Below are positions 12,875 to 49,534 of a stretch of DNA of 64,000 bases, one piece after another. The stretch lies in assembly GCF_016026235.1 (NCBI RefSeq), contig NZ_CP065613.1. One strand, 5' to 3'. The position numbers were made by a program, and so were the translations under genes. Numbering within the stretch: the stretch's first letter is position 1; every line of letters begins with the position of its first letter. This stretch comes from Escherichia coli (lineage in GTDB: Bacteria > Pseudomonadota > Gammaproteobacteria > Enterobacterales > Enterobacteriaceae). The notes under the pieces are model-generated. The model saw only the letters and a list, made by a program, of their open reading frames with translations. It was not told the DNA's origin and did not search any database.

Positions 12875-13678
12875 TTATCTCCAAGAGGCAAAGTGGCGCT
12901 TAAAAAACAAACACAGCGGATTTATATGATGTTTGGCAACAGCATTAACAGCATAGTGGGAGAAATAATAAAGAGATTTAAACAGACCAAACTTTAAATA
13001 TTTCCTGTAAAAGGCCCATTGTGAAAATATTATTTTTAATTTATTTGACGAGAGTGTATCGGTGCCTACTCGATAATAGGCCAGTGTTTCGTTCAAACAA
13101 TATGCATAATCAATTTTATCTAAAATGCTCAGCCATAGTGCCATGTCCTGTCTTTTCCTGATTGTTGGCATAAACATTTTACCAAGAGATGAAGTATCAT
13201 ATACAGCTGTCAAGCAACCTATTACATTAGTCTTTAATAATTCAGAATAATTAACTTTAGAAACAGGATTAATTTGGGATAAAAGTTTCCCGCTAAAACT
13301 AACCTTTTGATATGAGGTATAAGTGAAAGCATAATTATTTGAAAGCATAAAGTCTATCTGTTTTTTTATTTTCTCTTTATGCCAAAAATCATCACTATCT
13401 AAAAAAGCGATAAACCGACCTTTAGCTTTACTGATCGCTATATTTCTTGACATACCAGCCCCATAATTCTTCTCATTTGAAATGAGAACAACTCTTGAAT
13501 CTTTTTTTTGATATTCCCTGCAAATAGACACTGTATTATCTGACGAACAATCATCGACAATAATCATTTCTATATTATTATATGATTGAGATAGAACAGA
13601 ATCAATTGTACATCTAATCGTTCTTTCAGAATTATATGTGGGTGTTATGACTGAAACTAAATATTTATCGGTACTCAT
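12875..13678 (-). CDS. Glycosyltransferase, family 2 (last gene of O-antigen cluster)
   Basis: 267 aa; ITPTYNSERTI ... VDDCSSD ... FLDSDD motifs typical of GT-A fold GT2 enzymes; AT-rich. Confidence 0.8.
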   Translation of the reverse strand: MSTDKYLVSVITPTYNSERTIRCTIDSVLSQSYNNIEMIIVDDCSSDNTVSICREYQKKDSRVVLISNEKNYGAGMSRNIAISKAKGRFIAFLDSDDFWHKEKIKKQIDFMLSNNYAFTYTSYQKVSFSGKLLSQINPVSKVNYSELLKTNVIGCLTAVYDTSSLGKMFMPTIRKRQDMALWLSILDKIDYAYCLNETLAYYRVGTDTLSSNKLKIIFSQWAFYRKYLKFGLFKSLYYFSHYAVNAVAKHHINPLCLFFKRHFASWR

Positions 13679-13837
13679 AGAATCATCTCAAACTTACATA
13701 AGTTTCATTATATAATGTCATGTTTATCATATCCATCCTTGGTAGCTTATTAAGAAATTTCACATATTAAATATTTATCAAGTATTTCATTAACATCCCA
13801 CCTTAATATAAAAAGCCGTTAATTAAGAGAGTAACTA

Positions 13838-13937
13838 CAAAGCAAAGCAAAGCAAAGCAAAGCAAAGCAAAGCAAAGCAAAGCAAAGCAAAGCAAAGCAA
13901 AGCAAAGCAAAGCAAAGCAAAGCAAAGCAAAGCAAAG
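13838..13937. repeat. Pentanucleotide microsatellite (GCAAA)x20 on + strand, (TTTGC)x20 in the operon direction
   Basis: Perfect tandem array visible at 13838-13937, between gne (ends 13989) and the GT2 gene (starts 13678). Confidence 0.95.
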
Positions 13938-13988
13938 ATGGTTTTATAAAAATATTGACAGTGAATAAAATAGCACATTAAAATCGTC

Positions 13989-15002
13989 TTATTTATATCC
14001 TTTGGGATTGTTTTTTTGCCAACGCCAAGAATCAATTATCATTGTATCTAAATCATATCGAGAAGACCACCCTAATTCTAAAAATGCTAGAGATGGATCA
14101 GACCAACATTCAGCTATATCACCAACTCGACGAGGTTTGAAACAATAAGGGATATCAATTCCAGTACAACGTTTAAAGGTATTTATCACATCAAGAACTG
14201 AATAACCAACCCCTGTACCAAGATTATATACTTTATAATTTCCCCCAAAATTACGGTGTTCTAAAGCAGCTATGTGCCCTTCAGCCAAATCCATAACATG
14301 AATATAATCTCTAATGCCTGTTCCATCAGGTGTAGGATAATCATTTCCGAATACTGATAAATATTTTAGATTACCAATAGCCACTTGAGTAATATAAGGA
14401 ATTAAATTATTTGGAACACCATTAGGATCTTCGCCTAATAGACCAGAAGAGTGGGCTCCTACAGGATTGAAATAACGCAAAATAGTAATACGCATTGTTG
14501 GCTCAGCCAAAGCTATATCCTTCAAAACCCTCTCTACTATAAGTTTTGAAAAGCCATATGGATTAGTTGTTCCGCCAACGCTACTATCTTCCTTCAAAGG
14601 AATAGTTTCAGGCTTACCATACACTGTTGCGGAGGAGCTAAAAATAAAACTAATAACGCCAGCGCGCATCATTTCTTCAAGTAAAACAATAGTTCCGTTA
14701 ACATTGTGATCATAATATTCCAATGGATTTGAAACAGATTCAGCGACGGCTTTTAATCCTGCAAAATGAATAACATCTGTAATATCATGATACTGGAAAA
14801 TATGTTTGAGTTTTTTCCTATCACGCACATCACCATGATAAAATAGAGGCCTACGTCCACAAATTTTTTCGACCCTTTCTAACGACTTAGACGATGAGTT
14901 CGATAGATTATCCAACACCACCACATTTTTTCCGTATGATAATAAGGATAATACAGTATGTGAACCAATGTAACCTGCACCACCAGTAACCAAAATAGTC
15001 AT
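13989..15002 (-). CDS. gne: UDP-hexose 4-epimerase, GalE family (probably UDP-GlcNAc 4-epimerase Gne)
   Basis: 337 aa; LVTGGAGYIGSH ... HFAGLKAVAESV ... YxxxK context; GalE-family SDR inside an O-antigen cluster. Substrate (UDP-Glc versus UDP-GlcNAc) cannot be decided from sequence by eye. Confidence 0.8.
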   Translation of the reverse strand: MTILVTGGAGYIGSHTVLSLLSYGKNVVVLDNLSNSSSKSLERVEKICGRRPLFYHGDVRDRKKLKHIFQYHDITDVIHFAGLKAVAESVSNPLEYYDHNVNGTIVLLEEMMRAGVISFIFSSSATVYGKPETIPLKEDSSVGGTTNPYGFSKLIVERVLKDIALAEPTMRITILRYFNPVGAHSSGLLGEDPNGVPNNLIPYITQVAIGNLKYLSVFGNDYPTPDGTGIRDYIHVMDLAEGHIAALEHRNFGGNYKVYNLGTGVGYSVLDVINTFKRCTGIDIPYCFKPRRVGDIAECWSDPSLAFLELGWSSRYDLDTMIIDSWRWQKNNPKGYK

Positions 15003-15348
15003 AAAACTCCTTATATTTCATCTATCTGCCTAGGATATAAAACAAGAATATAAACACATTATAAATAGTATAAACTGTGAAAGAATAAAAATTTAGAATA
15101 GTTAAGCCCAATGTTACTATAAAAATACAATATGCAAGTATACGTTATTTTTCTAAACATCTCGACATATTGTATGAGTCTAACACTATATTGCATTTTT
15201 TTCGTGTAAATTATGTTCTAGTGGTGTCAGTAATTCGAGCAATTTATGAGGCCTTTTATTCTTGTACAGTATGCAATATTGAGCCTGTTTATGATTGACA
15301 TATTCAGATTTTCAAAGAGCAATTCTTCATTAAACTCAATAAACGGCT

Positions 15349-15634
15349 ATCTCAGTGATCGGTTAAAGCGCTCACAGATGGTGTTCATTTTCGGCGTATC
15401 GAGATAAGCCTATTGGTGCCTGATAGCGGCTTCCTGTAGCTTTTTGTCAAATTTTCCCAGGAACTCTTCCCCATAATCGGGTATATTCTGGTTGATTCCA
15501 ACAGGTAACAACCGAGCTTGATGGCAGAAGAAACTCATGATTACATCACTGTTAAGCGACGTTACCGCCACCGCCAAAGCGTAGTTGCTGCGTTCGTCAA
15601 TCACGGTAATAACATAACGCCGATTCTGAGCTCA
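15349..15634 (-). pseudogene. Remnant of an rve-type (integrase-core DDE) transposase gene, frameshifted and truncated
   Basis: Minus-strand frames give ...RRYVITVIDERSNYALAVAV... (VIDxxSR-like first catalytic-D region) and, in another frame, ...PKMNTICERFNRSLR* (xERFNRxL C-terminal integrase-core motif); local G+C looks higher than the surrounding cluster. Confidence 0.45.
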
Positions 15635-15944
15635 ATATAAGCTCACCGGTCTTTAGCGGGCTAATAGTACCTTGGACTTGAAGTCTGGGAACCCAGTTAC
15701 ACCAGTATTAGCCACATTTTATCATGTGCTGCCTAGCTCATTCCTCCAATAGTGGAGACGCTCGGGCAGGCCAAATGCTACTGTTCACACTACAGATTCA
15801 GACGGTCAAAAATCTGTTCTTTTCCAAGGTTGAGAAGTCCTATTCTAATTCATCATATTTCTTTCAAAATTTCTGGATGTCATAGTTTTGTAAGACATAC
15901 TAGAAAGATTTACTACTTGAGATAAGCACTTCCGAGCCTATATA

Positions 15945-16307
15945 TTAAACGCGTATTGATACACAAAAATTTTCTGCGGATGCATTGATTCCATGTCTTT
16001 CCCTAAAATGCAGGGTTTTCATTCTTAATTTTGCAATATCAGGCATGGCATTGTATTCCATCGCATAGATTGTTGCACGGTAATGCCCGAAACACCTGAC
16101 GCCGATATGTTGGTTCAACATAACAATCTCTCCTTTCTTATCTGGAGACAATTGCAACATCTCTGAAAACTTACACTCTGCCCATCGTGTACATAACCAA
16201 AGACAACAGAAATATGTCACGCCTTTTTCCAAATTCCAATTTATATTCCTTACTCTTATAACACAAGGAGTATCTGAATATATAAGAGTGAAGGAGTGCT
16301 TTGGCAA
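15945..16307 (-). CDS. Hypothetical protein or gene fragment of unknown function
   Basis: 120-aa ORF in the decayed segment between gne and wzy; no recognisable motifs; may be a remnant. Confidence 0.25.
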   Translation of the reverse strand: MPKHSFTLIYSDTPCVIRVRNINWNLEKGVTYFCCLWLCTRWAECKFSEMLQLSPDKKGEIVMLNQHIGVRCFGHYRATIYAMEYNAMPDIAKLRMKTLHFRERHGINASAENFCVSIRV

Positions 16308-16752
16308 AAATATTTAATTCAAAGATATAAAACACAATCGATTTAGTATCAAAAGATTACTCAGTAATCTTTCACCAAATAAATTAGTTCAAAATAACAC
16401 TACAGCAATGGCAATAAAACCATTCCATGAAATAGCAACATAAACACGCAAATAGAATTTCCACGTAAATTTATAACACTTACCAATCCAAAACATTATT
16501 TATTATAGATTGTATTCATGGGATTATCACCTGGTTCAGTTATAGATTTGTGATCTATGTAGTTCACTATTCTTACAGTTCTCAAAAAACTTAAATTAAA
16601 TTGTTGCGCTATTACCCTATAGTCTTTAAATACCCATAAAAACAAAGGCAAAAACCAATTTGTTTTACAGATATCTAGAATAAGATAATATGTCAACAAT
16701 TAACAAGTTACTACTATTGTTTGTTAATAAAAACCTGCAATTAAAATAATAA

Positions 16753-18015
16753 TCATGCATTAACCGAACCCCTTCTTATTAATCTTTTTTTATGACAAAT
16801 ATAAAAAGATGAAAATATATATATATATATTATTTTCATATATGCAACATTCAAAAATATAACCTCGCCTTTATAATGAAAAGAAAAACTGAGTATCGTA
16901 ATCATTAATACAACTATTTTAGGTTTGATGCTATTAGCAGCATAAATAGTCAAAAAAATAAAAAATAAAAAATAAAAAATAACCGATGGTACCGCACCCA
17001 AAAATAATGCTAACCGCATAAATCCAGCATCGGTCCCGAGATAATATGTCCCATCCTTTAACGTATAGTACCCATCACCAATGAAGATCTGTTTTTCTGT
17101 TAACGGAAAATACATATTAAATAATGCATCTGTAGATGTTGTTGATAACTTTCCTGAATCTAAATAATAATATAACATTTGAAAAGAATAATCCGAATAT
17201 TTTTTCAAGATATCATAAACATGTTCATTTAAAAAAAATCTCCAAAAAATAAATAAAAACAGAGATACATAAATCAAAATTTGAAGCGCCCGATAAAACT
17301 TCTTTTTATAATCAGAGCAAATAAAACTATATACCCCTCCGAGGACAAACCCCAAAACAGCCGTACGCCCAGCAGAAATTGACGCGAACAGCAAGAGTAT
17401 GATAAAAAATAATTTAAAAAAGAAAGGAATATTACAGTCTTCCTCATTAAACCAAACAATTGAAAGAAAAGATAATAATGACATAATTATAGCAAGACCA
17501 AAGGCAACAGAACCTGATATACCTAATCCCCTGATGCCTCCATATGTATTACTCATAAATTCTATTTCTTCTTTTGTTCTAATAATACTTTGAATATAAG
17601 CATTTATACTGGGAAAAAACATCATCAGAATAATAAAAAAGGATTGTAAGAGGGCAATTAGAAAAAACAATTTCAACACATTATCATTGTTATGCTGGAT
17701 TAAGTGCGACGCAATTATAACAGAGCTGAATAATGCAGCGAAATTATTAAAGATAACCCCCATGATAGATAAATCTCCTGTACCATTTAATACCAATGAA
17801 ATACAAGAAAAAAAGAGCATGCAGGCCAAAGACAAAAACGCAATAAAAAATATTCTTGTACTTATTAGACTAAAAAAAACAGTCCTTATCCTGATATTTG
17901 TAATTAAATAAATCAAGGAGAAAATATATATAAGATAGCCTGAATTAAAAAAAACAGGGATGCTAAAAGCAAACACAAATAAAAACAACAAAAATACATC
18001 AAAAAAAACCTTCAT
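16753..18015 (-). CDS. wzy: O-antigen polymerase
   Basis: 420 aa, highly hydrophobic multi-TM protein with a larger hydrophilic loop, adjacent to glycosyltransferases and wzx; identity as Wzy is by elimination (the other polytopic protein has the Wzx pattern). Confidence 0.7.
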   Translation of the reverse strand: MKVFFDVFLLFLFVFAFSIPVFFNSGYLIYIFSLIYLITNIRIRTVFFSLISTRIFFIAFLSLACMLFFSCISLVLNGTGDLSIMGVIFNNFAALFSSVIIASHLIQHNNDNVLKLFFLIALLQSFFIILMMFFPSINAYIQSIIRTKEEIEFMSNTYGGIRGLGISGSVAFGLAIIMSLLSFLSIVWFNEEDCNIPFFFKLFFIILLLFASISAGRTAVLGFVLGGVYSFICSDYKKKFYRALQILIYVSLFLFIFWRFFLNEHVYDILKKYSDYSFQMLYYYLDSGKLSTTSTDALFNMYFPLTEKQIFIGDGYYTLKDGTYYLGTDAGFMRLALFLGAVPSVIFYFLFFIFLTIYAANSIKPKIVVLMITILSFSFHYKGEVIFLNVAYMKIIYIYIFSSFYICHKKRLIRRGSVNA

Positions 18016-19127
18016 AAAAATTCCTTTTGTGACACGACCCGATAATAAATATCAACCATACGCTTTGTGTTTTTATTTATATCAAACATTTTTATTATTG
18101 TATCTCGGTTATATTCAATCGAACACCTATATTGATTACTATCTATTAATTTCACACACCTTGAAAAAACAGATTTCATGTCAATATCATCATGCAGATT
18201 CAAATACATTGCATGATTTCCTAATAGCTCTCTGTTTGCATCGATGTCTGATACTATCGGAAAACAATTACATAAAACGCCCTCCATTAAAGATAATGGA
18301 GCACCATCATTGCTAGGAATACTAAGAACAAAATCAGATTTATGAAGAATCGACCTTAATTCCTCTTTTTGAATAAACCCTATTAAATTTACTTTATAAT
18401 TATCTCCCTCACATTTTTTTGTGAGTTCTATTATCTTATCATGTGTGGTCTTTGACGATGAGCGGCCTAGTATATTGATATTAAAAAAGTACCCTTTACA
18501 ATCATAATCTTTCATATCAATAACAGCTTCTAAAAAGGACTCTATGTTATAAATATTATCCCAATTTCTTACAGAAGTTATTGTTATACATTTATCGTCC
18601 CTTATGCTTGACGTTTTTTCATCTGAAAAGAACCCCACATCTACACCATATTGAAAAGTATGTATTCGCTCCTGATTCACATTGAAATACGATATTATTT
18701 TATTTGTTATATGCTTGGCGGGTGAATTTACAACACAAAAACTTTTCATTGCTTTTACATATATTTTTCCTAATATCCCTCTCTTTTTTATAGTATTGTT
18801 AATGTCACTTCCCCATACTGAGAGTATCTTCTTTACTTTTCTAGGCAAAACACATGAAATTAAACCATAAGAACTAAAAAAATGGACATGAACCAACTCA
18901 GGCTTTAATAAAAAAAAATAAAAAAGAAGAAAAACAGGTGCGTATATAAAATCAAATTTAGTTTTTGTAAGTCTTGGTATCTTATATATCTCTCCTATTC
19001 CAACATTCTCAGAAATACTTTTGTCATAGTGTAGTGTGACAATTCTATAATCAATATATTCTTTGGAACCATGAATCCAGTTACTAATATGACCAGATAT
19101 CATAGGGCCAAAAACAAGTACTCTCAT
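18012..19127 (-). CDS. Glycosyltransferase, GT-B fold (GT4 / family 1 type)
   Basis: 371 aa; C-terminal E-x7-E-like region ...LSLMEGVLCNCFPIVSD...; overlaps neighbours by 4 bp. Confidence 0.75.
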   Translation of the reverse strand: MRVLVFGPMISGHISNWIHGSKEYIDYRIVTLHYDKSISENVGIGEIYKIPRLTKTKFDFIYAPVFLLFYFFLLKPELVHVHFFSSYGLISCVLPRKVKKILSVWGSDINNTIKKRGILGKIYVKAMKSFCVVNSPAKHITNKIISYFNVNQERIHTFQYGVDVGFFSDEKTSSIRDDKCITITSVRNWDNIYNIESFLEAVIDMKDYDCKGYFFNINILGRSSSKTTHDKIIELTKKCEGDNYKVNLIGFIQKEELRSILHKSDFVLSIPSNDGAPLSLMEGVLCNCFPIVSDIDANRELLGNHAMYLNLHDDIDMKSVFSRCVKLIDSNQYRCSIEYNRDTIIKMFDINKNTKRMVDIYYRVVSQKEFL

Positions 19128-20017
19128 TTTTTCCCCATTCGTTTTCTTAAATTTAAATAATAATTTTTAGCATGGAGTGGAGACAACCACCCAATACATT
19201 TCCCCACAATATTGTGCTTGATTTTTATTGATTCAATGACAGAGAATAAAAAAAACTCAACTGAAAAGTTGGTTGCATTAAATAAATGAATAGGTGCAAC
19301 TTCATTTTTTCTGAAAAATTTAGATAAAATAGTCTTGTTTTTTATTTGGATAAACTTCTTACAACTGCCAATTGAGCCATGCCTTATCCTATAAAATAAA
19401 ACCACGTCATCTATATTCCTTACAATACATCCACTCAATACAGCCCTACACAAAAAATCATAATCTTGAGCAGCATCTAAACGCCTGTAACCACCTAATT
19501 TATAATAAAGCTCTGACCTTAACAACCAAGTTGGATGAATTATTTCATTCCCCCACGAAAAATCTACTGGGTTCATATTAAAATAATCCCTAACAACATT
19601 ATCGTTCTCATCAATAACAACAGCCTGTCCACCGACTAAACTGACATCAGAATGCTTATTCAGATATTCTAATTGCTTTTTAAAACGCCCGTTAATAACA
19701 ATATCATCAGCATCCATTCTGGCAATAAAATCATAGCCATTACACGCGCCAAAAATTAATTTATTTAAACTTGCCGCCAACCCTTCGTTCTCATTAAAAA
19801 AAACAACGCACACATCATTTCTGGCACTAACTTCTTTTAAATATAAACTCTCAACATGAGGAATATCTTCATTTCTCCTATCGACTCCAATTATTAATTT
19901 ATATTTCACATTCTTCTTTTCCAATCTTTCCAGATCCTGAAGAGTACTGTCTACTGCCTTTTTTAGTATTATGTAACTCTCATTATAGTAAGTCATGATT
20001 ACAGCAAGTTTTTGCAT
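19124..20017 (-). CDS. Glycosyltransferase, family 2
   Basis: ORF 19124-20143; start placed at internal MQKLAVIMTYYNE (typical GT2 N-terminus); DAD/DxD-like motif RMDADD. Confidence 0.75.
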   Translation of the reverse strand: MQKLAVIMTYYNESYIILKKAVDSTLQDLERLEKKNVKYKLIIGVDRRNEDIPHVESLYLKEVSARNDVCVVFFNENEGLAASLNKLIFGACNGYDFIARMDADDIVINGRFKKQLEYLNKHSDVSLVGGQAVVIDENDNVVRDYFNMNPVDFSWGNEIIHPTWLLRSELYYKLGGYRRLDAAQDYDFLCRAVLSGCIVRNIDDVVLFYRIRHGSIGSCKKFIQIKNKTILSKFFRKNEVAPIHLFNATNFSVEFFLFSVIESIKIKHNIVGKCIGWLSPLHAKNYYLNLRKRMGKK

Positions 20018-21204
20018 TTCAAATCCCACAGACAACAAATTGTAATAATAATTGGCGATAGAACTACAGCATATACTATATAATAATATGGGAATAATGA
20101 AGAAAATAAAAAAATAGATATTAACGATAATACATTCGAACAAATCACATATTTTACTATATTTTTTGATGAGTGTATCATATGAATTAATTGAGTTAAA
20201 TATTGATTGAGTATACTTGGGATAACAGCTAGGCTAAATGAAAATATTAGAAAAATAAAAAAACGAGATATTTCTCCCTTTGTCAAATAAATAGAGATAT
20301 ATGATATTGCAGCCACACATATAAAAACAACGATGCTGTAAAACAACAATTTGAGTAGCTGACTTCTGTATTTTACTTCCACATAGTTAGTTTTGTGCCC
20401 TACGGAATAAAAAACCTCTGAATTACATTTATTTAAGACAGTGATAATTGAATTGGAAAATGTTACGGATACTGTCACAAATCGCATAACGACGTTATAT
20501 ATCCCTAACAAGCTAGCATTTCCTGATGCCAATATAGCAGAATTAATTATAGGCTGAATAAGTGCATTTACCCCGCTATATATGTACATATGCTTAATGT
20601 TTTTCAAATAATTTTTAATGTGTCTAAATGATATTTTTCCCAACCTATTATCATTCTTTATTTTTATCAAACTAATAAGTCCAACCAGAGCAGATGCTAT
20701 CGCCTGAATAAAAATAAACATGTGTAATTCAAAAGCATAATATAAAACAAATAAAACCGCTAAAATTTTAACTACCAAGGACACTATTATTATAAACCTA
20801 AAGTTATCCTTTGCTATATAGTACCAACTATTAAGCATGCCAAATCCAAACGAGAATATTACGACACAAAAATAATCACTCTTCCCTGCAGTCTCTGAAA
20901 TTATAATAAACACCATCGCACATACAAAAAAAAACACTAACTTAAAGAAAATCGCTGAAATAACAAACGACTGCTGAGCAATTTCATTACCCTTAAGCTT
21001 ATTTAATTGTTGTACGCCTACTGTATTTAGACAAGCATCATAAATAAATGAAATAAAAGTTGATATAGTTAACACATACGAATAAACTCCATATCCCTCT
21101 AAATTAAATCTAGTTAAAACCAGCGGCATAATTATTATTGGGACAATATAATCCACTAGCTTTAGAGCACTTACAGAGATAATACTTCTTAAAAAACTAG
21201 ACAT
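19999..21204 (-). CDS. wzx: O-antigen flippase
   Basis: 401 aa, about 12 predicted TM segments, polysaccharide-transporter-family N-terminus. Confidence 0.75.
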   Translation of the reverse strand: MSSFLRSIISVSALKLVDYIVPIIIMPLVLTRFNLEGYGVYSYVLTISTFISFIYDACLNTVGVQQLNKLKGNEIAQQSFVISAIFFKLVFFFVCAMVFIIISETAGKSDYFCVVIFSFGFGMLNSWYYIAKDNFRFIIIVSLVVKILAVLFVLYYAFELHMFIFIQAIASALVGLISLIKIKNDNRLGKISFRHIKNYLKNIKHMYIYSGVNALIQPIINSAILASGNASLLGIYNVVMRFVTVSVTFSNSIITVLNKCNSEVFYSVGHKTNYVEVKYRSQLLKLLFYSIVVFICVAAISYISIYLTKGEISRFFIFLIFSFSLAVIPSILNQYLTQLIHMIHSSKNIVKYVICSNVLSLISIFLFSSLFPYYYIVYAVVLSPIIITICCLWDLKCKNLL

Positions 21205-21643
21205 CTTTTATTTTTCTAGCCGGTTGCCCAACATATACACCTGGTTCCTCTAAGTTTTTTGTAACTATCGCTCCGGCACCAACAATAATATTACTACAGA
21301 TCTCCACTCCCGGTAAAACAATTGCTCCAGCACCTAACTGAACATTATCTTTTATTACTACCTTATCTTTTTTATATTTAAAGATTTTCTTTTCAAATAC
21401 CAAACCTGTACTGAGAATTTTACTACCAGCAGACAGTACTACATTATGGCCTAAAATGACTCCTCCACTAGCATTTATATACACAAAATCATTAATTGAA
21501 AAGGAATTACCGAATTTAAGATTCGATGGTTCTACTATCTTATAAGGACCATAAATATGGGATTGCTTATAACGTTTTACTCCAAACTCACAGATAAAAC
21601 ATAATTTATACCATATTAATTGAATTCTAGAGAATATGCTCAT
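21197..21643 (-). CDS. Hexapeptide-repeat O-acetyltransferase
   Basis: 148 aa; left-handed beta-helix hexapeptide repeats (GHNVVLSAGSKI... GAGAIVLPGVEI... GAGAIVTKNL). Confidence 0.8.
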   Translation of the reverse strand: MSIFSRIQLIWYKLCFICEFGVKRYKQSHIYGPYKIVEPSNLKFGNSFSINDFVYINASGGVILGHNVVLSAGSKILSTGLVFEKKIFKYKKDKVVIKDNVQLGAGAIVLPGVEICSNIIVGAGAIVTKNLEEPGVYVGQPARKIKDV

Positions 21644-22557
21644 AGCTTTAACTCCTTTCCGAGCCTTTCATCCCATTCAAATGGAGTTATCTTATCATAC
21701 CCCGATCCTTGATGAAATGTTAATTCGCCTACATATATTTTTTCTTGAACAAGATATAAATCAACCCTAAGATATTTGAAACCTTGACTTAGTTTTTTAG
21801 ATATATTTAGAGCGTTTTCTAACTGACTTGGTTTACTAATATTCTTCACATTAAATTTTGAAAGATCTTTTCCCCTTCTCGCCCAGCAAAAATCTAACAT
21901 ATTCCAACTAGTATCATATATAGAACGATAATTCCCTCCCTCACGATCTAACGACACATAAATAAATTTCGGTTCTCCATTAAAACAATGAATTTTTATA
22001 TCATTAGGAACTTTCCCTGCCTCATCCTCTAATAACCTTTCAACAATTATACGCCTATCAATATTTTTATATTGCCATTCTCTTCCGTGATGGTAAATAT
22101 TACAATTAAGTGTTCTAATAAATTTCCACTTAACCTCATCAATATTCAATAAATTCTTGTCTCTAACAATAAAATAATCGCCACAATAGTGGTTCGATTT
22201 TATAACAAACTTACCCTGTGGTAAAGACTCAAAGGTAATATCAAAAGGGGTATCATAAACCTTTAACAAATCAATTATATTATCTCTCGTTCCCAGCCTA
22301 TTTTCCACATATTCTCGCACTCTAATTTTATCAGCACATATTGTATGTAATAGTGTTCTGTCATTTAGTTTCAACCATTGTAACTTTTGATTTAATGTCT
22401 TCGGATTGTTCAATCCGAGAGGGTATCCCTGATATTCAAGAAACTGCTTTTTTATAATCAAGCTATCTGGAGTAATCAGAACGACAAAGCATTTCAATAA
22501 ATACTTTATATTATACAATATATACATCAATTTCATGGAAAGATTTTTTCTATTCAT
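21640..22557 (-). CDS. TupA-like ATP-grasp protein (predicted amide ligase acting on a sugar carboxylate)
   Basis: 305 aa; NPKTLNQKLQWLKL motif and overall layout recalled as characteristic of the TupA-like ATP-grasp family. Confidence 0.65.
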   Translation of the reverse strand: MNRKNLSMKLMYILYNIKYLLKCFVVLITPDSLIIKKQFLEYQGYPLGLNNPKTLNQKLQWLKLNDRTLLHTICADKIRVREYVENRLGTRDNIIDLLKVYDTPFDITFESLPQGKFVIKSNHYCGDYFIVRDKNLLNIDEVKWKFIRTLNCNIYHHGREWQYKNIDRRIIVERLLEDEAGKVPNDIKIHCFNGEPKFIYVSLDREGGNYRSIYDTSWNMLDFCWARRGKDLSKFNVKNISKPSQLENALNISKKLSQGFKYLRVDLYLVQEKIYVGELTFHQGSGYDKITPFEWDERLGKELKL

Positions 22558-23237
22558 ATTAGAATCTCAAATAATTTATGCTGTCTTACCCATTCTCTTG
22601 CCTGACCTTTCGATACTACTACCCCAACGTTGCTCATTTTTAATATTGGTAAATCGCTAATAGAATCAGAGTAAGTTGTTATATGATACTCAGAAACATC
22701 TAACGACAAAACACCTTTTAACATTAATACTTTATTATATCCCATGCAATTCTTGCCACTAATTCTCCCTAAACACCTGCCTCTATTATCAAATTTAATT
22801 TTTGTGCATACAAAGCCATTAATCTCTAATGCTTTAACTAAATATTGAATATAAATATCATAGCCTCCAGAAATAATAATAACCTCATCTCCATCTTTTA
22901 AATGCTTATTCAATATCTTAATTATGGCAGGATTAATTCTGCGCAATATAATTTCATTAACGTAATCACGAGCCATTACATTAAGAATATCCCTTTCAAT
23001 ATTTTTTAACATATACAATAAAATTCTTTTCCTTAAGCTTTCCCCCAATCTTATTTTATTTATTATTTGTTCGATTTTGAAAATGGATAATGAAGATGCC
23101 ACCCTATTTAAAGTCTGTATTTTGATGTTATTACATATCCCCAAACGATCTATTACATAGTATATAAACCCATCGCCAGTTTGAAAATCAACTAAGGTTT
23201 CACACAGATCAAATAATGCTATCTTTTTTAACTTCAT
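22554..23237 (-). CDS. HAD-superfamily phosphatase (subfamily IB-like)
   Basis: 227 aa; N-terminal motif I variant FDLCETL, ISGG, C-terminal YSDSISDLP acidic motif. Confidence 0.7.
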   Translation of the reverse strand: MKLKKIALFDLCETLVDFQTGDGFIYYVIDRLGICNNIKIQTLNRVASSLSIFKIEQIINKIRLGESLRKRILLYMLKNIERDILNVMARDYVNEIILRRINPAIIKILNKHLKDGDEVIIISGGYDIYIQYLVKALEINGFVCTKIKFDNRGRCLGRISGKNCMGYNKVLMLKGVLSLDVSEYHITTYSDSISDLPILKMSNVGVVVSKGQAREWVRQHKLFEILI

Positions 23238-24315
23238 ACATCTGCTCTAAAATTCTGATTACATACAACATTTGTTTTTTCGTTCCAATAGTAATTCTGA
23301 CACATAACTCGACCTCTTTCATATGAGATAAATCACGAACAAATATTAAATTAGATTTTAAACGTTCAATGAATGCTTTTTTATCATTCATCGATTTAAA
23401 CTCAATAACCAAAAAGTTCCCCTCTCCATATACAATATTTTTTTGACCTATATTTATATTTTTCAACTTATCATAAAAAAAACGCTTAGCCTGATTAACT
23501 TCCTTAACATAATTATTCATATATTCAACTTCGTCTAATGCATTCAAAGCGGCAATCTGACTTAGCTGAGGTATATTTTTTGCATTTCTGACTTTATTTA
23601 TTGCACCTAACAAATCTTGTGACGCTATTATATATCCCATTCGCATCCCTGCCAATGAAAATGCTTTGGAAAATGTTCGCGTAATAATTATGTTATTAAA
23701 GGAGTTTACAAAATCAGCACACGTTAATTTTGCAAATTCATAATAGGCTTCATCGATAATAAAATATATTCCTTTATATTTTTCTACAAGATAATGTATA
23801 TCTCCTTTAGGAATAAGAGTACCTGTAGGATTATTTGGGTTACATAAATAGGCCATTTGAGGTTGAAACTTATTGAGATCGCTTTCAAACTTCTTTAATG
23901 ACCAATAGTAATTATCTTCAAAAATTGAATAACAAATTGTTGCCCCTTGAGCTTCACCTGTTGTTCTGAAATTATCATACGTAGGTGCTAACATCAATAT
24001 TTTATCATTTTCATTAATTAATGTACGAATGATAGACTCGTGTGCTGAGTCTGAACTACAAAAATATTGGATATATTCCTTTGGCACCCCCACATAGTTT
24101 GATATCTTTATTATTAAATCTTTATTGCTCACATCTGGATAATACCTAATTAGATTATTTACCAACGAATTCATTAATGCATTTTTTACTCTTTCTGGCG
24201 GTTCAATAGTAGATTCGTTCCAATCTAATTTTAATATTGTTTCTTTATTTTCACTCTCCCATATAGCGTGGGATGCAAGTTTATATGGTTTCATTTTTTT
24301 TACGAACTTATTCAA
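23209..24315 (-). CDS. HisC-family PLP-dependent enzyme (aminotransferase or decarboxylase acting on a phosphorylated substrate); first gene of the O-antigen operon
   Basis: 368 aa; motif-for-motif parallel with the hisC in this window (CNPNNPTG vs CSPNNPTG; IDEAYYEF vs ADEAYIEF; TRTFSKAFSLAGMRMGY vs [16 protein letters not shown]; VRITIGT vs LRITVGT) but highly diverged and AT-rich. Confidence 0.8.
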   Translation of the reverse strand: MNKFVKKMKPYKLASHAIWESENKETILKLDWNESTIEPPERVKNALMNSLVNNLIRYYPDVSNKDLIIKISNYVGVPKEYIQYFCSSDSAHESIIRTLINENDKILMLAPTYDNFRTTGEAQGATICYSIFEDNYYWSLKKFESDLNKFQPQMAYLCNPNNPTGTLIPKGDIHYLVEKYKGIYFIIDEAYYEFAKLTCADFVNSFNNIIITRTFSKAFSLAGMRMGYIIASQDLLGAINKVRNAKNIPQLSQIAALNALDEVEYMNNYVKEVNQAKRFFYDKLKNINIGQKNIVYGEGNFLVIEFKSMNDKKAFIERLKSNLIFVRDLSHMKEVELCVRITIGTKKQMLYVIRILEQMYEVKKDSII

Positions 24316-24800: not shown

Positions 24801-24839
24801 CACGCTACCGCCCCTGGCTTTACAGCTACCAGAGCACTG
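24801..24839 (-). promoter_or_regulatory. 39-bp JUMPStart element with ops (GGCGGTAGCGTG) antitermination site upstream of the O-antigen operon
   Basis: + strand reads cacgctaccgcccctggctttacagctaccagagcactg, the reverse complement of the JUMPStart consensus as recalled; ops 12-mer at 24801-24812. Confidence 0.85.
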
Positions 24840-34438: not shown

Positions 34439-34494
34439 ATCGTTACCCTTTTTCAGGCAATAGTTGGCCCTGACCGAAGCGGCCAATTTTATTT

Positions 34495-44945: not shown

Positions 44946-44974
44946 TGGTTGTTCTCCCGGAGTGTCGAGATGTT

Positions 44975-45115
44975 CTGCCGGTTTATAAGCTTGTTTACGG
45001 GTTCTGTTGCCGGATGCGGCGTGAGCGCCTTATCCGGCCTACGGAGCTGGTTTGCTTGCCGGATGCGGCGTGAAGGTAGGTCGGATAAGATGCGTCAGCA
45101 TCGCATCCGACAGCG
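44975..45115. repeat. REP/BIME cluster between wcaA and wzc
   Basis: Two or three copies of gccggatgcggcgtga...cgccttatccggcctac type palindromic units. Confidence 0.65.
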
Positions 45116-45122
45116 GATGTCG

Positions 45123-48876: not shown

Positions 48877-49054
48877 TGTTTATTTATCACTTTGGCAGAG
48901 TAATTATCCTGTGCACTATTAATAGCAATGTCGCCATGCACATTTACCTTGCAGTTAATTGAATAAAAATTTAACTGGCATCAGTCCTAAAAAAATTGAT
49001 TTCATCCGCAGGCTATTGACAGAATAATTCAGACTGGTCTTTCAGGCATCCAGA

Positions 49055-49093
49055 CACGCTACCGCCCCTGGCTTTTTAGCTACCAATACACTG
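49055..49093 (-). promoter_or_regulatory. JUMPStart-like element with ops site upstream of wza
   Basis: + strand cacgctaccgcccctggctttttagctaccaatacactg; same ops 12-mer (reverse complement) at 49055-49066; lies in the wza leader. Confidence 0.8.
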
Positions 49094-49534
49094 ATTTAGA
49101 TTAATTTTTCAAACCCTCTCTGCATACAATCGTTGATGAGAAAGGGTTATTGCGGAAATTAACTTCCGAATATAAGGTGACATTATGGTAATTGAATATT
49201 GGCTCTCCAATAATGCAGGAGGAAGTGTTACAGCTAACGGAATAGCAGGCAAGGTAACAATTCGGCAATTGGCTATTTTTAAGAATTATATTAAGTGTCA
49301 TTCAATATGGTTTTTAGGAGTTTCTTTAGGTTGACAATATTTAATATTGCGCCTCCACATGCGATATTTCTTAAATAATGTTTTATTATTACCACTTTTA
49401 ATTCAGGGATAATGTGAGGTTATTACCCTCAAATAATATGAGATAAATAGTGCTGCAACATTGCATTTTTTCCCCGATTTATCCATGATCGAATTGTGAC
49501 ATTTGTCATACAACGAATAGGTTTTGTACTTACT

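Follow-up and report, generated by a model that had tools for sequence, protein, structure and literature searches.

A JUMPStart/ops element upstream of wza in the colanic acid operon of Escherichia coli

The wza Locus and Its JUMPStart Element

The window analyzed here, a 64-kb stretch (64,000 nucleotides) of Escherichia coli DNA, carries the colanic acid (wca/cps) operon on its minus strand. The first gene of the operon is wza (48876 to 47737), an ORF of 379 aa starting with MMKSKMKL, whose counterpart in matching E. coli genomes bears the annotation Wza. It is followed by wzb and wzc and then by the genes from wcaA to wcaM, and, according to the ORF list and the annotation of a syntenic genome, the wza-wcaM unit comprises 20 intact ORFs over 22.7 kb (48876 to 26166). 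Upstream of wza lies the divergent yegH with asmA beyond it, and galF is located after wcaM. An untranslated leader with conserved blocks of primary sequence occupies 48877-49054 of the minus strand, between the ops site described below and the wza ATG. No GGAG-type Shine-Dalgarno sequence was found within 20 nt of this ATG.

An Rfam scan of the whole window matched the JUMPstart family (RF01707) at 49055-49093 on the minus strand with 57.3 bits (E-value = 1.6e-10), against a gathering threshold of 35 bits and over model positions 1-38 of 38. The matching 39-mer of the wza leader reads CAGTGTATTGGTAGCTAAAAAGCCAGGGGCGGTAGCGTG. Its last 12 nt (49055-49066, minus strand) are GGCGGTAGCGTG, an exact match to the ops 12-mer that serves as the RfaH recruitment sequence, and they fit the ops consensus GGCGGTAGnnTG with zero mismatches. 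The motif reads on the coding (non-template) strand of wza, within the untranslated leader; ORFs of 47-66 aa that lie over or beside it on the same strand are mechanical calls, and none of them is annotated in the genomes looked at. The scan also returned a second full-length match at 24801-24839, again on the minus strand (60 bits, E-value = 2.6e-11), located between galF and an O-antigen cluster of the O143 family. The 64 kb contain exactly two exact copies of GGCGGTAGCGTG, one at 49055-49066 and the other at 24801-24812, and the minus strand carries both. A search with the looser consensus GGCGGTAGNNTG led to the same two sites only, compared with an average of 0.12 in dinucleotide-preserving shuffles. 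We therefore consider it very probable that the 39-mer at 49055-49093 is the JUMPStart element of the colanic acid (wca/cps) operon leader and that its 3′ 12 nt are the ops site.

A previous sequence-only reading of this stretch had described the wza element as a near-identical second copy of a JUMPStart/ops element with its ops 12-mer intact, and the exact matches and the pairwise alignment of 24801-24839 with 49055-49093 bear this out. When both are read in the sense of transcription, the 39-mers of the wza and O-antigen leaders have 34 of 39 bases in common, including an unbroken 3′ stretch of 21 nt, AAAGCCAGGGGCGGTAGCGTG, which is identical in both. The same reading had placed a few differences downstream of ops. 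Differences do exist, five in number, but all of them fall in the promoter-proximal (5′) portion of the 39-mer and lie 5′ of ops, so that they are downstream only in plus-strand coordinates. One of these substitutions gives the O-antigen copy a C-G in place of the U-G of the wza copy at the closing pair of the stem in the Rfam model. The flanks of the two 39-mers are unrelated on both sides. The spacing of about 24 kb on one strand that had been proposed for the two elements stands at 24,254 bp, with the correction that the strand is the minus strand for both, and each copy heads its own transcription unit. Finally, the distance to wza, previously put at about 180 bp, is 178 nt from the last base of ops to the ATG, or 190 nt from its first base.

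Conservation within and beyond E. coli

Comparison with a reference cps leader likewise agrees with the assignment. The window and K-12 MG1655 are base-for-base identical over the stretch that begins with the 39-mer and runs up to the wza ATG, with zero differences within the element and with the same neighbors (yegH divergent upstream, wza-wzb-wzc downstream). The sole difference in the compared stretch is at position 49099, 6 nt upstream of the 39-mer, an unconserved position with T in the window, A in MG1655 and G in another strain. The whole intergenic region of 671 nt is present in 4818 of the 5426 complete E. coli genomes, and a 71-nt stretch around the element was recovered at an identity of at least 95%, with the wza copy in place, in 4817 of them. 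This 71-nt stretch is 100% identical in only 2 of the 5426 genomes, because of the single SNP at 49099, which lies outside the element; its near-uniqueness was thus ruled out as a noteworthy feature.

Concerning other species, wza orthologues were collected together with 2 kb of upstream sequence, one genome per species, resulting in 80 loci with 87-100% protein identity. The genera sampled include Citrobacter, Salmonella, Enterobacter, Kosakonia, Lelliottia, Cedecea, Buttiauxella, and Trabulsiella. The sample is unbiased as to the element, and 79 loci had upstream sequence that could be assessed. The consensus GGCGGTAGnnTG is present on the wza strand in 72 of these 79 species, and near-matches are found at the same place in 4 further loci. 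Three of the four end in GCGTA or GCATA, the forms that ops takes at c1882 and kpsM, which are bound by RfaH in strain CFT073. Variation within ops is confined to positions 9-10 (CG, CA, or CC, all allowed by the consensus) and occasionally position 12. In all loci checked ops starts 188-199 nt before the ATG, with one exception at 308 nt. The latter belongs to Citrobacter amalonaticus (1666-1974 of its locus), whose leader contains an insertion of approximately 118 nt downstream of ops.

Across 77 sequences, ops matches the window with a mean identity of 0.94, the 27 nt on its 5′ side with 0.81, and the 39-mer as a whole with 0.85. The value falls to 0.33 in the 80-nt 5′ flank and is 0.53 in the 25-nt 3′ flank. 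The edge of conservation is sharp and coincides with the initial CAGTG of the element. The difference between ops (0.94) and the 5′ flank (0.33), together with this sharp boundary, demonstrates that strong purifying selection acts on the wza JUMPStart/ops element itself. In three of the 79 loci, all belonging to the Pseudescherichia clade, the element has been deleted cleanly from an otherwise alignable leader. These cases of natural ops loss are Pseudescherichia vulneris, "Escherichia sp. ESNIH1" and a related MAG, with the deletion at about 1780-1830 of each locus. Since these genomes keep the remaining leader and have lost the element, JUMPStart is dispensable in some lineages. The cross-species table, in which 72 of 79 species retain ops with a fixed spacing and one clade lacks the element, is a modest quantitative supplement to published work.

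Conservation also extends into the leader between ops and the ATG, which has an identity of 0.74 overall in the cross-species comparison. Three blocks are conserved across genera, at 49031-49011, 48995-48973, and 48916-48877 of the minus strand. The last one, which corresponds to the final 40 nt before the ATG, reaches 0.89 and exceeds the first 30 codons of wza. A search for conserved RNA structure in the ops-to-ATG leader of 26 species yielded only 8 weak pairs with no covariation, and such a structure was rejected. The leader also contains GGA motifs, for instance ACAGGAT at approximately 48913, which we take to resemble CsrA sites. The conservation of the 27 nt 5′ of ops and of the three blocks raises the idea that the wza leader is more than a loading site for RfaH. 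The same idea is suggested by the last 40 nt before the ATG, which are more conserved than the start of the coding sequence, lack a canonical Shine-Dalgarno sequence and contain GGA motifs. Such a second, undescribed regulatory layer might be a platform for a protein or an sRNA, or a ribosome-loading sequence for RfaH-coupled translation, although we regard its existence as rather unlikely. The clean loss of JUMPStart in Pseudescherichia provides a natural test of this possibility.

Promoter Candidates Upstream of the Element

Full-text literature searches returned no published coordinates for the wza promoter or its RcsAB box, and the region upstream of the element was described from its sequence and its conservation. 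At 49277-49295 on the minus strand lies the sequence CTTAATATAATTCTTAAAA (plus strand TAAGAATTATATTA), with an identity of 0.87 across species. It resembles the RcsAB consensus reported by Wehland and Bernhard (2000) and may be an RcsAB box. The candidate for a conserved promoter is located at 49224-49252 (minus strand) and would consist of TTGCCT, a 17-nt spacer with a TG, and AACACT; the block that contains it (49254-49222) has an identity of 0.82. A consensus scan gave one match upstream of the element, a sigma-70-like promoter at 49182-49209 (minus strand) with TGGAGA, a 16-nt spacer, and CATAAT. Since the stretch 49209-49182 is not conserved outside Escherichia (identity 0.33), this match was demoted to an alternative. 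Both candidates are upstream of JUMPStart, which would consequently lie within the transcribed leader whichever of the two is used.

Two further observations were made in the same region. A conserved block at 49337-49312 (minus strand), with the form TTGTCAAC...TCCTAAAA (TTGTCAA...TCCTAAAA), lies approximately 33 nt upstream of the RcsAB-like box. Its TCCTAAAA part echoes the TCTTAAAA half of the box and recurs in inverted orientation at 48995-48987, and the block is possibly a further RcsB-type half-site. In addition, many E. coli genomes carry a PGAP annotation ("hypothetical protein", WP_162829205.1) for an ORF of 49 aa on the plus strand (49185-49334), which is the only annotated small ORF there. 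This ORF lies upstream of the element, runs opposite in strand to the RcsAB-like box and the promoter candidates, and overlaps them. The pattern of blocks and indels over 49185-49334 across genera is not coding-like.

RfaH Recruitment and Alternative Readings

The element is real, functional-looking and strongly conserved, but it is also ordinary and already known. According to later literature, Hobbs and Reeves (1994) and Stout (1996) described it in the K-12 cps promoter region. Further publications attribute JUMPStart-RfaH antitermination to the wca operon and count colanic acid among the products under RfaH control. According to a published summary, RfaH binds at ops, travels with the polymerase, excludes NusG, suppresses pauses, and recruits the ribosome. 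Applied to the window, this would lead to the following course of events. The Rcs system, acting at the putative RcsAB box approximately 220 nt upstream, would switch on a promoter that is otherwise silenced by H-NS. RNA polymerase would then enter the wza leader and pause at ops, where the non-template GGCGGTAGCGTG would be exposed in the transcription bubble. RfaH would bind the exposed strand and the polymerase and would remain bound for the rest of the operon. By excluding NusG it would blunt Rho, and it would suppress pausing and help ribosomes to load on a leader without a good Shine-Dalgarno sequence. Transcription could thereby reach the distal genes of the wza-wcaM unit, and the element would explain how polymerase gets to the end of this 22.7-kb capsule operon after the Rcs stress system has switched it on. 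The base composition of the wca genes (~53% GC) is a point against RfaH dependence, as it differs from that of the AT-rich clusters in which dependence is strongest.

The closest experimental counterpart is the wza ops of strain CFT073, which has the same 12-mer GGCGGTAGCGTG, the same position of -190 (start of ops to start of wza), and the same placement on the non-template strand of the leader (PMC9765446). ChIP-seq located an RfaH signal at this site in a delta-hns delta-stpA background, and the signal was absent in delta-rfaH (Hustmyer et al., 2022; PMC9765446). RfaH occupancy was measured in CFT073, whereas the window, which does not include the rfaH gene, is known from its sequence; by analogy with the orthologous site, RfaH probably loads at the wza ops of the window as well. 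Together with the Rfam model and the conservation, the ChIP signal supports the earlier proposal of an RfaH-type antitermination site in the wza leader. CFT073 also has a second ops at its O-antigen cluster, ~24.5 kb from the wza ops (24,254 bp in the window), although the O-antigen clusters differ, that of the window being of the O143 family. With both copies, the window has the usual two entry points for RfaH, one for colanic acid and one for the O-antigen. In CFT073 the O-antigen cluster is constitutively transcribed and RfaH-bound in the wild type (PMC9765446), whereas wza-wcaM is a "cryptic" RfaH-regulated locus whose promoter is H-NS-silenced in rich medium (Hustmyer et al., 2022; PMC9765446), and wild-type cells give no RNA polymerase signal at wza (PMC9765446). 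In K-12, ChIP-chip is reported to have detected RfaH at only two operons, in keeping with a promoter that stays silent in laboratory culture. From these two observations, it follows that the wza ops site is idle under standard laboratory growth.

In an alternative reading, the element is not, or not only, a DNA signal for RfaH but a cis-regulatory hairpin formed by the nascent transcript, the "JUMPstart RNA motif". The structure line of the Rfam alignment does define a hairpin at 49068-49086 (minus strand), with the arms TTGGT (49086-49082) and GCCAG (49072-49068) and a 9-nt loop. Its 5-bp stem can pair in 99.3% of the cells among 56 distinct orthologous sequences, and the closing pair varies between U-G, U-A, and C-G without being broken. 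Moreover, conservation extends to the 27 nt on the 5′ side of ops (0.81) even though RfaH contacts the 12-mer, so that RfaH recruitment explains their conservation only partly. On the other hand, no compensatory change on both sides of the stem occurs in the 56 orthologues, and shuffled sequences reach the observed pairing values (172/500 and 164/500). The folding energy of either JUMPStart copy is no better than that of shuffles (z = -0.03), and the minimum free energy fold of the wza copy does not use the stem of the model. These results lend no support to a function at the RNA level, which we regard as unlikely, and recruitment of RfaH through ops is preferred.

It is also conceivable that the site is vestigial, i.e., that ops is still recognizable but contributes nothing to colanic acid expression, over which Rcs-dependent initiation would be the sole control. 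The two RfaH operons in the K-12 report, the untranscribed wza of wild-type CFT073, and the loss of the element from a whole clade would all be compatible with an idle site. However, the element is conserved over ~75 species at the level of coding sequence, beside a flank that is not conserved, and it varies only at ops positions known to tolerate change. RfaH also loads at the wza ops of CFT073 once the promoter is de-repressed (PMC9765446), and we consider a vestigial site very unlikely. Even less credible is the view that the direct 39-mers serve mainly as recombination junctions for the exchange or deletion of polysaccharide cassettes, with wca and galF between them. As direct repeats 24,254 bp apart they do bracket these genes, and the galF-his region is described in the literature as a hotspot of polymorphism. 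Nevertheless, only 21 nt in a row are identical, the wza copy is retained in place in 4817 of 5426 genomes, and the spacing to the wza ATG is fixed from genus to genus, a constraint of the transcription type rather than that of a junction, leading us to reject this reading. A chance resemblance, for which nothing speaks but the shortness of the motif, was rejected altogether in view of the E-values of both Rfam matches, the two consensus sites where 0.12 would be expected, and the conservation across species. There is nothing new here for the field, and the value of the result is a correct annotation, together with a check that such elements can be recognized by eye.

As for the barriers that RfaH would have to overcome, intrinsic-terminator-like hairpins in the wza-wcaM operon are no more frequent than in shuffled sequences, which is a further point against the RfaH reading. 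The only strong structure found in the operon is a long hairpin formed by REP-type inverted repeats in the wzc-wcaA intergenic region (44946-45122, minus strand), 3.9 kb downstream of ops. Its folding energy is -62.7 kcal/mol (z = -4.7), and none of 200 shuffles was as stable. The hairpin is a candidate for an intra-operon barrier or attenuator met by the RfaH-modified polymerase, or alternatively for a stabilizer of the mRNA. The group 1 capsule locus of K30 and the cps locus of Klebsiella have a similar organization, with JUMPStart ahead of the wza-wzb-wzc export block and a structured gap before the serotype-specific genes. A stem-loop attenuator is reportedly present in the K30 group 1 capsule operon (Rahn and Whitfield, 2003), and presumably the REP hairpin after wzc has the same position. 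The two arrangements differ in that the K30 and Klebsiella elements follow galF and precede wzi, with largely constitutive expression, whereas the element of the window follows an Rcs-dependent promoter beside yegH.

Two other regions of the window deserve mention. Inside the wca operon, a full-length match to the algC RNA family (RF02929) is located at 34443-34492 on the minus strand (76.6 bits, threshold 33.8), in the gap between cpsB and cpsG just ahead of the phosphomannomutase gene. The O-antigen cluster of the O143 family, which the other JUMPStart copy precedes, extends over 12875-24315 (minus strand). It is AT-rich (29-37% GC, compared with ~53% for wca) and has a full-length match in only 4 of the 5426 complete genomes. 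Within it, the stretch 15002-16753 is without ORFs; at the corresponding place, the closest single-piece reference has a degraded integrase/IS remnant. The wzy gene (16753-18015) is an intact ORF of 420 aa in the window, while it is frameshifted in that reference.
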